This document shows positions 53,058-61,307 of a stretch of 64,000 nucleotides of DNA, piece after piece; the first letter of the stretch is position 1, and each line of letters opens with the position of its first letter. A program made the translations under genes and the position numbers. The stretch comes from Candidatus Woesearchaeota archaeon. GTDB taxonomy: Archaea > Nanobdellota > Nanobdellia > Woesearchaeales > UBA583. The stretch is taken from positions 767,777 to 831,776 of the forward strand of contig CP060218.1 of assembly GCA_023898345.1 (NCBI GenBank), read 5' to 3'. The notes below the pieces were generated by a model. The model saw nothing but the letters and a program-made list of their open reading frames with translations, searched no databases and had not been told where the DNA came from.

Positions 53058-56000
53058 ATGCAAGAAAAAAATGTAAAACCTCAAAAGCAAAAAATAAAGA
53101 ATACTGTTCTCTCACTCTTTCTCCTTCTCTTTACAAACTGCCTCTTTTTGAGTACGGATGTTTTTTCCACCCATCTCAAAAATGATCTTCCTTATACGAT
53201 TGAGATTTTGGATTTGGGCCAATCTTCAACTTCTCCAATAGAAAAAATCAAACTTACTCAAAATGCTTCTACACTCCTCACATCAGGAAATGCATATCTT
53301 GTACTGCAAACTAGTACAGATAAATCTTCCTTTTGGATGCAAATCCCAAGCGAACTTTCAAGTTCTGCCATAAAAACAACTTACCTCAGACCTTACGAAC
53401 AAGGAAGTCCAAAACTCCTCTCTTCGGTTTGTCAGGCAGAGGCAACACTACAAGAAACGATAAGTACTCTCTCTTCTGATAGTATTATTACGTATACAGC
53501 TTATGCTAATTTTGAAACAAATACAGAACTTGAACAAAGATTAGCTCAATTACAAACAAACTACAAAACTGCGATTGAGAACAATATGTACATGAAAGTC
53601 TTTGCGTATTTAGAGATTACAATAAAAGATGCTGAGAGTGGCCATGAACTGAATAAACGATATCTTCTTCCAACAAAAAGTACGACAGATGGAACTTACT
53701 TCTACAATGCTCAAGTTGAAAATAGCCCGACAAATCTCTATGGAACGTTTGCCCAATTTCAAGATCTTAGCACTTCCACTCACTTTGCTTTTTTCAAGAA
53801 TATTTCTTTAATGAACAATGCGAGAATTCCTTATCAATTACTTAAGGAAGAAAGTTCTCCAAAAACGTTTTCGTTTTCTCTTGCTGAACTCAATCCGTCT
53901 CTCCTTTGGAAAAATAATTCTGTCTACGACCTTACTTTACACCTTATCCCCATAGATGGAAAGTGTGACTTTAATGAAAATGGGATCCTTGAAGAGAATA
54001 GTGAATTCATGGTAACAAGTCTTACTACTGCCACAATTTATCCTTTAAGTAATTCCGATCCTTCCCCCTATAGAAAAATAAAAGTTCTAGGAGAAGGAAA
54101 CATAGCATCCTCCCTTATTGCAAAAAGTCATGAGTGTGGTGATACTCTTTGTACAACATTTCTCTCAACAACTGGAGCTGGTAAAGAGGGGGAATCGTAC
54201 ATTTTAACTGGCATTACTCCTTTTGAATGGACAGCACCGGCAAACAAGGCTCTTTCCTTTACGGCACCAAACAGAAGAGTTTTCTTTTCAGGTCCTTTTA
54301 ATATGAAACTTACATATAATGACGCCAGTGGACAAAGCTACTATCTCCAAAATCTCACTCCTCGTTATCTTACTCCCCAAACTGTACAAAGAATAATTGA
54401 TAGTAAAAAAGACGAACAAAAATATATGAATCTTTTTTTAGGAAAGCAGGCATCAGCGTTTTCTAATTTTGATCTTTTCTTAGACACTTGTTCAGCGCAC
54501 ATCATGGATGAAAGTTTTGATCCAACTACTCATATTCTTACCATAGACGTTCTTAGTAGTCTTGAAGCTTTGAAGAACCCTTGGAATTTCAAGGATATAG
54601 CAGGCTATGAAGATTTTTCAGAATATTACGACATGAAAATTCTTTCTTTCCTAAAGATCTCTAATCCTAGTACGGGTGAGCTAACGTATCTTGCGGCTCA
54701 GGACACCAGCAGCCAGGACTATGCGTATTCACAAGGCGGAGTTGCCGGTACAGACAAGCAATTGGAAACCCTGTTCGGATCGGAATTTCTTCTTCTTAAG
54801 AATAAAATTGCATCATCAGTAGGAACTTACAAGGTTACTAAGGTTAGTGATATGACAACAAGCATTCAGTTTGATCTTTCACCTCTTTATGAGGCTGCGT
54901 TTCTTCCTGAACTGGAGACCCCCCAAATTGAAATTTATGCAATTCCTGTAGATGGAAAATGTGACTTTGATGAGAACGGCCTCCTTGAAGGAACTGAATC
55001 AAAATTAAGTTCTTGGACCATAGAATCTTCTCTGCCTCTTGGCGGCGTACTTGGAACTGAACAAACGCCTATTGAAGTAAAGAAACTTCCTAGAGGGTAT
55101 TCACTGTGGACCACTACGGTAAATGAAGAGACTGCCCAAGAATTAGTCTTTAACAATAAAAAAAATGAAAAAAGACGTTTTGTTCTTCTGTCGAACGGGT
55201 CTCTCTATTTTAAGGATAGGAATGATGAACTCCACTTCATTGCGTTCTCTTCCTTTGTCCCTGTTGAAGCAAATATTTCCATTAACTATAAAGAACTAGT
55301 TGCTGACGGAAGTGAGGAGTTTCTCACGGATCCTAGTATAAATCCCGAAACAAAAGCACCTCTTTACCTAAAAGAAGATACCATATTGAAAATGAATCTT
55401 GTCACTCAGTTTAGAAATAAAGAAGACGCTTTGGAAAAAGTTAACAAGACTCTTACTCTTATGAACTTCTTGGATATTGAAAAAAATCTTACGTACATTG
55501 AAAGCACAAATAGAACACGAGTACTTATTTCAGTAAAAAATGTTCCTCTTTCTTATAGAGAAAATTTAACGATATATGTTGTTCTTCCAAAAGAGGATTT
55601 GCCAAGTTTAGAAAAACTTACTTTGCTTACTAACTCTAAACACTTTTTTGTAAAAGATAAAGACCCTATTATTGGATGGCAGTTTAATTTTAGTGATGAA
55701 AATGAATCGGTCGGATTTGAACTCGAAGGGAATGCCAGTACGGGCACAGTTATTGTGACACAAGACCCTGTTATTTACAATGAAGGAAACCTCCTCATTA
55801 ACTACAGACAAGAACAGTGTAATCCTGATGAAGCTTATCTTTTTGATATCAATGACCTCATTGACTCTCCTGTAAACAGACCGCAAAGTTCGGATCTCTA
55901 CCATATTTGTGTTGGACATACTTCGCACTATTTAACAAATCAAACGCTTAGTTCAGTTCTCAATCTCTTTAATATGACTACGGCTGCGACAGCAAATCTT

Positions 56001-56849
56001 TCTATAACTGGATTTTTTCCGAGTTTCACAATCAACCTTTCAGATCAAACTGACCCTTTTACAACATGGAGTTTTTCCATTGGCAGTCTTAATCCGGGTG
56101 GGTATTCTTGCCTTGGTTCGCTTGAAAACACTGCTAACTCTCTCTTTGGCGATTGTGAGTATACGGAAAATAGAGTGTGGATAAAGCTCAATACGGATGA
56201 TAAATCTCCTCAAACAACAATCAGCATTTCTTCACCGGGCGGCATTATTGAGGCAACACTTAATGCTAGCGATCTCCCAAATCCTGGTGCTTCTGGTGTT
56301 AAGGGAATTTATTATTGCGTGGACGAGCTTGGAGTCTGTAATCCTGATAACATTAGTTCTTTTTCAGCAGGAGAAAATATCACGTTTTCTCTGACGTGTT
56401 CAGGAATTAGCGGCTGCACAAAATATGTTCGTTTCTTTGCAGAAGATAATAAGGGAAATAAGGAAGCTCTTCAAACTGAGACTGTCACAATTTTGGACAA
56501 GGGCTCGAAATGTGAGGCAGATTGTACTGCAAAACCTACACCAAATCGATACCTCAAAGAATGTAATGGCGTTAGTGGATGCAGCTATTATCCTTTTGCT
56601 CCAAATGGTGTTCCGGACGCTGGAGTGTACGTTGCAAATGCCTGCCATTTCCTAACTAAAGGAAGTTATGCTTCATACAATGCTAGCCATGATATTTTGT
56701 GCCCGAATGGACCGGTTATTGCAAAACGTCTTACGAATGAAACTGTTGATACGAAAGAGAGCACTTGTGAACACATCGTTAAAGATAGTTATTTGGTTCT
56801 TGTCAATGGAGAAAAAGTTGAGATGAGTATTCTTGTCTGCCTTTCTTAA
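53058..56849 (+). CDS. Large secreted protein (1263 aa) with internal duplicated domain and Cys-rich C-terminus
   Basis: Signal peptide; repeat IP(I/V)DGKCDF(N/D)ENG(I/L)LE occurs twice. Confidence 0.55.
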   Translation: MQEKNVKPQKQKIKNTVLSLFLLLFTNCLFLSTDVFSTHLKNDLPYTIEILDLGQSSTSPIEKIKLTQNASTLLTSGNAYLVLQTSTDKSSFWMQIPSELSSSAIKTTYLRPYEQGSPKLLSSVCQAEATLQETISTLSSDSIITYTAYANFETNTELEQRLAQLQTNYKTAIENNMYMKVFAYLEITIKDAESGHELNKRYLLPTKSTTDGTYFYNAQVENSPTNLYGTFAQFQDLSTSTHFAFFKNISLMNNARIPYQLLKEESSPKTFSFSLAELNPSLLWKNNSVYDLTLHLIPIDGKCDFNENGILEENSEFMVTSLTTATIYPLSNSDPSPYRKIKVLGEGNIASSLIAKSHECGDTLCTTFLSTTGAGKEGESYILTGITPFEWTAPANKALSFTAPNRRVFFSGPFNMKLTYNDASGQSYYLQNLTPRYLTPQTVQRIIDSKKDEQKYMNLFLGKQASAFSNFDLFLDTCSAHIMDESFDPTTHILTIDVLSSLEALKNPWNFKDIAGYEDFSEYYDMKILSFLKISNPSTGELTYLAAQDTSSQDYAYSQGGVAGTDKQLETLFGSEFLLLKNKIASSVGTYKVTKVSDMTTSIQFDLSPLYEAAFLPELETPQIEIYAIPVDGKCDFDENGLLEGTESKLSSWTIESSLPLGGVLGTEQTPIEVKKLPRGYSLWTTTVNEETAQELVFNNKKNEKRRFVLLSNGSLYFKDRNDELHFIAFSSFVPVEANISINYKELVADGSEEFLTDPSINPETKAPLYLKEDTILKMNLVTQFRNKEDALEKVNKTLTLMNFLDIEKNLTYIESTNRTRVLISVKNVPLSYRENLTIYVVLPKEDLPSLEKLTLLTNSKHFFVKDKDPIIGWQFNFSDENESVGFELEGNASTGTVIVTQDPVIYNEGNLLINYRQEQCNPDEAYLFDINDLIDSPVNRPQSSDLYHICVGHTSHYLTNQTLSSVLNLFNMTTAATANLSITGFFPSFTINLSDQTDPFTTWSFSIGSLNPGGYSCLGSLENTANSLFGDCEYTENRVWIKLNTDDKSPQTTISISSPGGIIEATLNASDLPNPGASGVKGIYYCVDELGVCNPDNISSFSAGENITFSLTCSGISGCTKYVRFFAEDNKGNKEALQTETVTILDKGSKCEADCTAKPTPNRYLKECNGVSGCSYYPFAPNGVPDAGVYVANACHFLTKGSYASYNASHDILCPNGPVIAKRLTNETVDTKESTCEHIVKDSYLVLVNGEKVEMSILVCLS

Positions 56850-58942: not shown

Positions 58943-59065
58943 CTTACGAGCAGCGAAAGCCATTGTTCGTGTTCGAGTTAGAAGGACCATTGTTCAAGTT
59001 CAGAGCAAAGGCACCCGCGTTTGCACCATTGTTCCAATTGCCCCCGGACAGGAAAACACCCTTTG
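58943..59065 (-). repeat. DGR template repeat (TR)
   Basis: 123-bp match to 59971-60093; 17 of 19 differences are at TR adenines on the minus strand; TR reads KGVFLSGGNWNNGANAGAFALNLNNGPSNSNTNNGFRCS-stop. Confidence 0.8.
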
Positions 59066-59106: not shown

Positions 59107-59481
59107 TTAATATAAATTTGAGGTATACTTCTTTAGTAATCCTCCCAATAACTTACCGAGTAGTTCTGATTTCTCAAGCATTAATAGATATTGATTAAAT
59201 GGCAGAAAATGCAAATCCTTTGCTATCCTAAGAAGAAGTTTAAATTTGTCAAAAAGATAACTTATTTTCCGTAACTGAGAACTCTTATCTTTTTGGTTTA
59301 GTCTTGTAAATTTATCGAGTATGATTAACATTTCTAAAGCTGTTTCATCAATACTCTGCCTCAATGTAAATTTTTCACTCTTAGGGAACCTTGCAAGCGA
59401 AGGATACAAGTTTAGATAAAGATTGTACACTTCATGATAAAGTAAAAAACCATCATCTTTCTTACCACAATTATTTTCCAT
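59107..59481 (-). CDS. Avd-like accessory protein (four-helix-bundle type)
   Basis: 124 aa, size and position between VR and TR; LYP..FPK..LRQ pattern resembles Avd family; similarity judged by eye. Confidence 0.5.
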   Translation of the reverse strand: MENNCGKKDDGFLLYHEVYNLYLNLYPSLARFPKSEKFTLRQSIDETALEMLIILDKFTRLNQKDKSSQLRKISYLFDKFKLLLRIAKDLHFLPFNQYLLMLEKSELLGKLLGGLLKKYTSNLY

Positions 59482-59836
59482 TTTTGTTGTCAGGTTGTTC
59501 CAATTTTCTTATTAGGCCATTCATGTATTTTATACTGTCCTCAAGAGTATTTGAATAATTTTCTTTGAGTATGTTCAAGTCTTTCAAAGTCGATAATTCA
59601 ATTTGAAGTTGTGATAGCAAAATCCTCACCTTGTTGTATATTTGTAACTTTCCTTTCAGAGACCAGTAATTATATCCTGCATTTAAATCGGGGAAAATCT
59701 CTATAACATGAGAGTAAGCTTTTTCGATTAATACTTTATGCCCCGTACTATTTACTCTCAAAGCATCCAATTCTTGAATTATCTTCAAGAAGTTTGGAAA
59801 ATATTCTCGATATATTGGCAAATCAAAAGCATTCAT
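59471..59836 (-). CDS. Hypothetical DGR-associated accessory protein (121 aa)
   Basis: Overlaps the Avd-like ORF by 11 nt, lies between target gene and TR. Confidence 0.35.
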   Translation of the reverse strand: MNAFDLPIYREYFPNFLKIIQELDALRVNSTGHKVLIEKAYSHVIEIFPDLNAGYNYWSLKGKLQIYNKVRILLSQLQIELSTLKDLNILKENYSNTLEDSIKYMNGLIRKLEQPDNKNGK

Positions 59837-59856
59837 TTTTCAGTATAAATTTTTGC

Positions 59857-59903
59857 GAACATGCTTCGCATGTTCTCATCCCTGGGGCGGCATTTAGCCG
59901 CCC
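59857..59903 (-). promoter_or_regulatory. Two perfect hairpins just 3' of the VR (GAACATGC-TTC-GCATGTTC and GGGCGGC-ATTTA-GCCGCCC)
   Basis: Stems read directly from sequence at 59857-59875 and 59885-59903; a GC-only stem stands out in this AT-rich DNA. Confidence 0.4.
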
Positions 59904-59962: not shown

Positions 59963-61303
59963 TCATCGTGCAAAGGAGCAGCGAAAGCCATAGTCCGTGC
60001 TCGAGTGAGAAGGACCATTGTCCAAGCGCAGAGCAAAGGCCCCCGCGCGCGCACCAGAGTCCCAAGCGCCCCCGGACAGGAAAACACCCTTTGACGCACA
60101 ATATCCAGTACAAAAATCGGGATACTCATTCACATTATTATACGCACCCAAAATGTCGTAACCATCGTAATATCTCCCCATTCCTTGATTCGCATTCCAT
60201 CCATTTGAAGGAAGCTTCAAAGTGGGAACAAGACTTGCAACCTTGCCTGTGCCGTCATTGCTATGGTAACTCATCCATTGCTGGTCTCCTCCATGATATC
60301 TGTATGGTGAACCAAGACTCTCATTTGCATAGACCCAAGCGTCAACCCATTCCCAGACATTGCCTGCAAAGTCCCAGAGTACTTCTCCGTTTGACAAGTT
60401 CAAAGTTCTTCTTTGTCCTGCACATGCCCTTCCACTTGTTGTGTCATCACCAGCTACAAAGTTGTTATACGAACCATCACAAGAACTCAGACTATCTCCT
60501 GTCCCAGAGTAGCCATTTCCGTCGTCAGTGTCAGCAGCAAGTCTGCTTGAGGGACTGTTGTCGTTGTGCCCAGAGTACAAGAAACCAGTGCCAACGACAG
60601 AGGAGTTCCAGTTGCTTGCGACAAACTCAACATTGTGTGCAATCGTCAGCCTCTCTTCTTCCGTCATCAAATGAAAGCCAGAACCCAAACTCTCACACTC
60701 TACCTTTGCTGCGTTCCACGTAATCGAAGCCCAAGGTAAACTAGCAGCTTGCGATGTCGCAACACCCCCAACATTCTTTGCTTCGTACTTCATCACACAA
60801 AAATTGTGTGTGCCGAGTTCAGCATTTCCGGGAACGACAACATAGCCGTCCGGACATGGGTTCTCGTACACGTAAGAATTCACATACTCCGTCTTTGAAT
60901 AAATCCTGCCATCCGTCACAACGACAATCTCATTCTTCCCTTCGTTGGCGCAGTCACTCATAGGCAAGACATTCAAAGAATTGTTTGTCAAACCAGAAAC
61001 AAAGCAATCATTTCCGTTAATAGAAACGCTTTGGATTTTAGCATTTCCCTTCACAAAAAGAGTTCCGCCAGACAGACCTTCAACAGAGAAAGAGCCAGAA
61101 GAACTTTGTGTGTCGACATGTGAAAGTGTAGAACTAGAAAAAGATTGGTACCAGGTTTGAAATCCGAGTGCCGCCAGAATAGCAACGACAATCAGCAAGA
61201 CACTAGCGACAACAGGAGAAATAGCTTTTTTCGAAGAGAGACACGAAGAAGACATCCTAAAATTAGACGAGACAAGTTTTGGGGAAAGCTTAGTTCTGTT
61301 CAT
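59963..61303 (-). CDS. DGR target protein: N-terminal TM anchor, C-terminal C-type-lectin/FGE-like variable domain
   Basis: ATG at 61303; TM segment VVASVLLIVVAILAALG; C-terminus ...NVWEWVDAW...GGAWDSGARAGAFALRLDNGPSHSSTDYGFRCSFAR; VR is the last 41 codons. Confidence 0.8.
   Translation of the reverse strand: MNRTKLSPKLVSSNFRMSSSCLSSKKAISPVVASVLLIVVAILAALGFQTWYQSFSSSTLSHVDTQSSSGSFSVEGLSGGTLFVKGNAKIQSVSINGNDCFVSGLTNNSLNVLPMSDCANEGKNEIVVVTDGRIYSKTEYVNSYVYENPCPDGYVVVPGNAELGTHNFCVMKYEAKNVGGVATSQAASLPWASITWNAAKVECESLGSGFHLMTEEERLTIAHNVEFVASNWNSSVVGTGFLYSGHNDNSPSSRLAADTDDGNGYSGTGDSLSSCDGSYNNFVAGDDTTSGRACAGQRRTLNLSNGEVLWDFAGNVWEWVDAWVYANESLGSPYRYHGGDQQWMSYHSNDGTGKVASLVPTLKLPSNGWNANQGMGRYYDGYDILGAYNNVNEYPDFCTGYCASKGVFLSGGAWDSGARAGAFALRLDNGPSHSSTDYGFRCSFAR
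59971..60093 (-). repeat. DGR variable repeat (VR) at the 3' end of the target gene
   Basis: Aligned to TR by hand; all 11 AAY codons of TR are substituted in VR. Confidence 0.8.
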
Positions 61304-61307
61304 TTTT

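Follow-up and report, generated by a model that had tools for sequence, protein, structure and literature searches.

The 64,000-nucleotide stretch of DNA analysed here (the window: positions 767,777 to 831,776 of the forward strand of contig CP060218.1, GenBank assembly GCA_023898345.1) comes from a Candidatus Woesearchaeota archaeon and carries a diversity-generating retroelement (DGR) with two small overlapping open reading frames (ORFs), ORF121 and ORF124. On the minus strand, the gene order is reverse transcriptase (RT), a 13-nt tandem array, the target gene, two hairpins, ORF121, ORF124 and the template repeat (TR). When the TR and the variable repeat (VR) were compared over 118 nt each, 16 mismatches were found, 15 at TR adenines and one a T to G change. 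The VR encodes the C-terminal ...GGAW...GFRC motif of the target protein. With an RT gene, adenine-specific TR/VR differences and a VR at the 3′ end of the target gene, the cassette as a whole has the make-up of a DGR, and both small genes are part of a working-looking element. An earlier note on this DNA had placed two ORFs of 121 and 124 aa, overlapping by 11 nt, between VR and TR, and this layout is confirmed (Table 1). We consider it fairly probable that the two are an operonic pair of paralogous Avd-type proteins (Avd, accessory variability determinant), constituting the accessory module of a chromosomal DGR of Woesearchaeota (DPANN), for which we propose a mixed barrel.

The junction of the two genes reads ...AAAAATGGAAAATAATTG..., with the ORF124 ATG lying 11 nt before the end of the ORF121 stop codon, and translational coupling across this overlap is likely. 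Homologues were found for both genes: 37 for ORF121 at 45-99% identity, from metagenome-assembled genomes of Woesearchaeota/Nanoarchaeota and from metagenomes, and 25 for ORF124. Compared with seven homologous loci, non-synonymous differences per site were 0.09-0.34 for ORF121 and 0.10-0.36 for ORF124, whereas synonymous sites of both genes were saturated (0.70-0.90). This indicates purifying selection of similar strength on the two. Judged by this conservation, ORF121 and ORF124 are real genes and not chance ORFs. GenBank holds identical proteins on a 1.54-Mb Candidatus Woesearchaeota archaeon contig, where ORF121 is entered as 'hypothetical protein H6501_02640' and ORF124 as 'four helix bundle protein'. 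The public ORF121-like proteins are all unnamed ('hypothetical protein') and have no Pfam domain.

ORF124 had been described as Avd-like in the earlier note, and profile comparison supports this. The protein scores 53.9 bits against Pfam bAvd (PF22296), above the gathering cut-off of 40, and matches phrog_3206 (PHROG 'Avd protein of DGR') at 1.1e-18. The NCBIfam model DivGenRetAVD (NF033474) is matched with an E-value of 2.9e-15 and 56.4 bits, under its strict equivalog cut-off of 80. ORF124 also fits a four-helix bundle of ~110-125 aa resembling the solved Avd, and is strongly basic (pI 9.36; mean of its family of 24 sequences 9.58 ± 0.11), as published for Avd (9.5 ± 0.7; PMC5758913). It is encoded beside the TR, in a cassette that includes an RT and an adenine-biased TR/VR pair. 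A search of PDB sequences with the Avd family profile returned a chance hit alone. We conclude that ORF124 is a standard Avd accessory protein.

For ORF121, the earlier statement that it has no recognisable family stands at the level of direct matches. Scans of Pfam, NCBIfam, PHROGs and PDB sequences gave nothing significant, with no Pfam match at E ≤ 1 and hence no direct significant match to either PF22296 or PF05635. Pairwise BLASTP between ORF121 and ORF124 was not significant, nor was an hhalign comparison of the narrow ORF121 family with the ORF124 family (E 0.19). The statement does not stand for remote homology, where a profile-profile signal between ORF121 and Avd was obtained only with broadened profiles. 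Searching 1.84 billion representative proteins with the ORF121-family profile yielded 53 relatives. PF05635 is matched at E ≤ 0.1 by 27 of the 35 aligned members of the extended ORF121 family (individual values 1e-5 to 8e-9), and one extended member, P0073, exceeds the PF05635 gathering score (36.1 bits against 33.8). P0111, the weakest listed match that was checked, is a canonical PF05635 protein (1.1e-37). Using hhalign, the extended ORF121 family aligned with the partner Avds at 91% probability (E 1.1e-6) in 116 columns that span the full length of the two proteins. The narrow ORF121 family aligned with P0111 at 92.6% (E 4.5e-7), and the local Avd family gave a weaker alignment with the same protein (75.5%, 2.4e-5). 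The fold search assigned ORF121 an Avd-like four-helix bundle. As three independent lines, fold search, transitive profile matches and profile-profile comparison, agree, ORF121 is placed in the same four-helix-bundle superfamily as Avd (PF05635/PF22296). It is an ancient, very diverged second Avd paralog and not a new fold.

A comparison of the two proteins with canonical family members reveals that different motifs are kept in each. ORF121 retains the helix 2-3 turn motif LNAGYNYW..KGK..YNKVR (canonical NIAEG..Y..KDK..Y.ARGS) and lacks the FPKSEKFTLR motif, and ORF124 shows the reverse, retaining the helix 1-2 loop motif RFPKSEKFTLRQ (canonical FPK.E.Y.L..Q) without the helix 2-3 turn motif. 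The alignments suggest a complementary retention of ancestral motifs. Conserved polar residues of ORF121 are located at one pole of the bundle, made up of the N-terminus of helix 1 (LPIY), the helix 2-3 turn and the C-terminal end of helix 4 (Y104-E113). The pI of ORF121 is 8.73, with 8.39 ± 0.90 for the close family and 7.55 ± 1.7 for the extended family, several members of which have a pI of 4-5.

Metagenome contigs were scanned with the narrow ORF121-family alignment. Loci are referred to by our own L numbers. The bAvd gene directly follows the ORF121-like gene in 17 of 17 distinct complete loci, all within DGRs, and this includes relatives at 28-34% identity. On incomplete contigs the downstream sequence is missing, or the copy is truncated or frameshifted. 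The two longer Avd-bearing contigs absent from the ORF121 match list were inspected, and in each of them a remnant of an ORF121-like gene lies upstream; in one case the contig ends within it, and in the other it is shortened. The pair is found in two cassette orders. In the window and in L008, L009 and L015 the order is RT-target-ORF121-avd-TR, and in L011, L013, L014, L018 and L021-L023 it is the classical target-ORF121-avd-TR-RT. The RT thus lies upstream of the target in close relatives of the window DGR (window 62533-58948) and in the classical position in more distant ones (L021 4288-8164), which means that a window-type RT is not transcriptionally downstream of the TR. Flanking genes differ and are unrelated between loci of both orders. 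Adenine-biased VR/TR pairs were confirmed for L008 and L009; L011, L019, L021 and L022 also have VR/TR repeat pairs. The 11-nt overlap recurs in L001, L008 and L009; elsewhere the genes overlap by 1-8 nt or are separated by 7-54 nt.

The two proteins also diverge together. When pairwise identities were compared over the 17 loci, the matrices for the ORF121-like and Avd proteins correlated with r = 0.96 (Mantel 0/2000), and the mean pairwise identities are nearly equal at 0.42 and 0.45. ORF121 and Avd are an obligate, ancient module in this archaeal DGR group. The co-occurrence across DGR loci agrees with the suggestion in the earlier note that the first ORF is an accessory factor of this type of retroelement. 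One archaeal metagenome contig of 698 kb (Ga0210034_1000002) contains two separate DGR cassettes (L021 and L023), each with an ORF121-like/Avd pair and an RT, and small DPANN genomes are therefore able to hold multiple copies of this cassette type.

In the Bordetella DGR, the RT is inactive without Avd, which forms a basic homopentameric barrel; the N-terminal extension of the RT touches two of the five Avd protomers, and the spacer stem-loop downstream of the TR is touched by all five (bioRxiv 10.1101/2023.10.23.563531). A heteromer is mechanistically plausible given that the known Avd is an oligomer used asymmetrically (bioRxiv 10.1101/2023.10.23.563531). Because ORF121 and ORF124 have identical folds, are strictly co-encoded, co-diverge and are likely to be translationally coupled, we consider it most likely that the two form one accessory complex for this archaeal RT, with a mixed barrel probable. 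Following co-translation, the two proteins would assemble as a mixed Avd barrel, where the Bordetella phage DGR has a homopentamer. Adenine-mutagenic cDNA synthesis would take place with the RT and the TR-flanking RNA docked on this barrel, and the paralogs would share out the asymmetric contacts. ORF124, from a uniformly basic family, may keep the RNA-binding role, and the less basic ORF121 may supply a specialised surface. We are more hesitant, and lean slightly against rather than for it, about extending this scheme to a whole clade of DPANN-archaeal DGRs. All would then have an obligate heteromeric Avd, in which one paralog is a basic RNA-binding subunit and the other, carrying the ancestral helix 2-3 motif, is specialised, for example for the N-terminal extension of the RT.

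Two points weigh against a mixed barrel. Strict synteny and co-divergence would be expected just as much if the two formed separate homo-oligomers or if one regulated the other; and the ORF121-like proteins are less basic and more variable in pI than the Avd family (9.58 ± 0.11), which counts against a simple redundant RNA-binding role. In an alternative reading, ORF121, though a second protein of the Avd fold, would oligomerise only with itself and have a separate job in the retroelement, such as handling of cDNA or target site, RNA chaperoning or host-factor recruitment, instead of serving as a mixed-barrel subunit. The evidence from fold, homology and synteny is identical for this explanation, the charge is clearly unlike that of Avd (pI 8.4 ± 0.9 against 9.6 ± 0.1), and the conserved motifs differ between the two proteins, suggesting different interaction surfaces. 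However, genes with overlapping stop and start codons and equal evolutionary rates more typically encode subunits of a single complex, and we regard separate homo-oligomers as unlikely, if a serious contender.

An inhibitory function is a good deal less probable. Here ORF121 would act as a regulatory decoy: as a degenerate Avd paralog, it would bind to Avd or the RT and so hold mutagenic retrohoming in check. It shares the Avd fold with less positive charge and is always co-encoded with Avd, and uncontrolled DGR activity would presumably be costly. Yet the ORF121 family is conserved as strongly as Avd across both cassette architectures, and its position as the first gene of the pair, upstream of and probably translationally coupled to Avd, suits a stoichiometric partner better than an inhibitor. 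It is very improbable that ORF121 is unrelated to the DGR, whether as a passenger gene (a toxin-antitoxin or abortive-infection component) or as a chance ORF. Two weak matches point in that direction. The match to the YafQ toxin (E 0.053) reaches 14 bits, far below the cut-off of 87, and was judged spurious. The match to PADLOC AbiZ (E 2e-5, 22 bits) aligns residues 55-115 with positions 13-71 of a 398-position profile, thus with just a short helical stretch, and probably reflects composition. Moreover, ORF121 keeps its position between target and Avd in all 17 distinct complete DGR loci although the flanking genes vary, and this synteny already contradicts the reading. The gene also co-diverges with Avd, is under purifying selection and encodes the Avd fold.

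Table 1 Features of the DGR cassette in window coordinates.
Feature	Position	Strand	Description
ORF121	59471..59836	-	121 aa, ATG start, pI 8.7; diverged second Avd-superfamily four-helix-bundle protein ('Avd partner')
ORF124	59107..59481	-	124 aa, ATG start, pI 9.4; canonical DGR accessory variability determinant (Avd)
ORF121/ORF124 overlap	59471..59481	-	11 nt, ORF121 stop with ORF124 start (ATGGAAAATAA)
VR	59976..60093	-	3′ end of target gene; 118 nt aligned to TR
TR	58948..59065	-	begins 41 nt downstream of ORF124 stop codon end (59107)
Target (variable) protein	59963..61303	-	start codon uncertain: M at 61303 or 61255
DGR reverse transcriptase	61484..62533	-	PF00078 RVT_1 2.3e-23, residues 64-278
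13-nt tandem array	61307..61483		perfect, 13.6 copies; joins RT and target reading frames
Two hairpins	59854..59903		between VR and ORF121

The target protein has an archaeal pilin-type N-terminus (KKAISPVVASVLLIVV...; Pilin_N 0.065 in Pfam, arch_flag_Nterm 8e-4 in NCBIfam) and a C-terminal lectin/FGE-like domain (FGE-sulfatase, E 0.012) that ends in the VR. Target homologues are present in L008, L009 and L021, and RTs related to that of the window in L008, L009, L015 and the type-II loci. In L009 (7194-8340) the RT is split into two overlapping ORFs of 86 aa and 298 aa, which may be a frameshift or an assembly error, and this copy may be inactive. The genes for ribosomal proteins L15e and S8e are found downstream of the window cassette, and the element is therefore chromosomal. 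A scan of viral contigs revealed no relatives and thus gave no indication of a virus-borne pair. We folded the 181 nt that extend downstream from the last 13 nt of the TR in search of an Avd-binding stem-loop, and obtained no energy signal for this segment (z -0.77). Just upstream of the ribosomal protein genes, a 1263-aa ORF on the plus strand (53058-56849) has an apparent signal- or transmembrane-like N-terminus and a cysteine-rich C-terminus, and looks like a large surface protein.

The 13-nt array is located at the 3′ end of the RT gene, with the gene-strand unit GACAGGGTTCAGA repeated at 100% identity. Three frames are open through it, each giving an identical 13-aa repeat, and the window RT ORF continues in frame through the array into the target ORF to give a single ORF of 856 aa. 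The same unit occurs in L015 (786-910; 9.6 copies) and a different 13-nt unit in L009 (8209-8289; 6.2 copies), and no 13-nt array was seen in L008. As 13 is not divisible by 3, a gain or loss of copies would shift the frame, and the array could therefore act by slipped-strand switching on the C-terminus of the RT or on a fusion of RT and target. The first of the two hairpins (59854-59878) has a stem of 8-11 bp and a 3-nt loop, and the second (59885-59903) is GC-rich with a 7-bp stem and a 5-nt loop. L008 and L009 have comparable hairpins between VR and the ORF121-like gene. In other DGRs, homing is enhanced by a hairpin/cruciform downstream of the VR, and the hairpins seen here are similar to it as well as to the trinucleotide-loop hairpin described by Paul et al. 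2015 for Nanoarchaeota DGRs (PMC4372165).

Avd is essential for DGR reverse transcription and, to our knowledge, has so far been understood only as the homopentamer of one phage system. A conserved module of two Avd paralogs would, if confirmed, mean that specialised subunits can make up the accessory barrel, explain the constant 'hypothetical' gene in these cassettes and give annotators a new family. In reconstitution or engineering of archaeal DGRs, omitting ORF121 may yield inactive systems. Should the heteromer prove obligate, it would represent the first case in which subunits of the reverse-transcription machinery of DGRs have specialised, and it would establish an accessory protein family that is new and as yet unannotated. 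The literature covered, which left the CPR (candidate phyla radiation)/DPANN survey of Paul et al. 2017 (Nat Microbiol) outside, yielded no description of a conserved, diverged Avd paralog. For Nanoarchaeota DGRs, Paul et al. 2015 remarked only on ORFs with Avd-like pI and mass (PMC4372165).

Among DGR accessory genes, Wu et al. 2018 distinguished the classes avd, HRDC, MSL and CH1, and found two avd genes in just one of 372 DGRs (PMC5758913). Like their accessory genes, ORF121 is small, conserved and located inside DGR cassettes, and it qualifies by the same synteny criterion. It is not HRDC, MSL or CH1, the last being acidic, 160-169 aa long and present only in DGRs without avd (PMC5758913). 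The 23S rRNA intervening-sequence or 'S23 ribosomal protein' family of four-helix bundles (PF05635, TIGR02436; PDB 2GSC, 2RLD) is a further relative, for which ORF121 itself falls below any threshold. In contrast to these proteins, ORF121 is strictly DGR-associated and paired with bAvd, and both ORFs lie between a DGR target and its TR, with L15e and S8e instead of rRNA as neighbours. The closest known system is the Avd of the Bordetella phage BPP-1 (bAvd; PF22296, NF033474, PDB 4DWL, 8UB7). Compared with this protein, ORF121 has no direct match to Avd profiles and is less basic, and the RT of the window is encoded upstream of the target gene, not downstream of the TR as in the Bordetella DGR. 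Whereas avd is a single gene in Bordetella and in most DGRs described, with a product that forms a homopentamer, the archaeal loci described here always carry two diverged paralogs in tandem.
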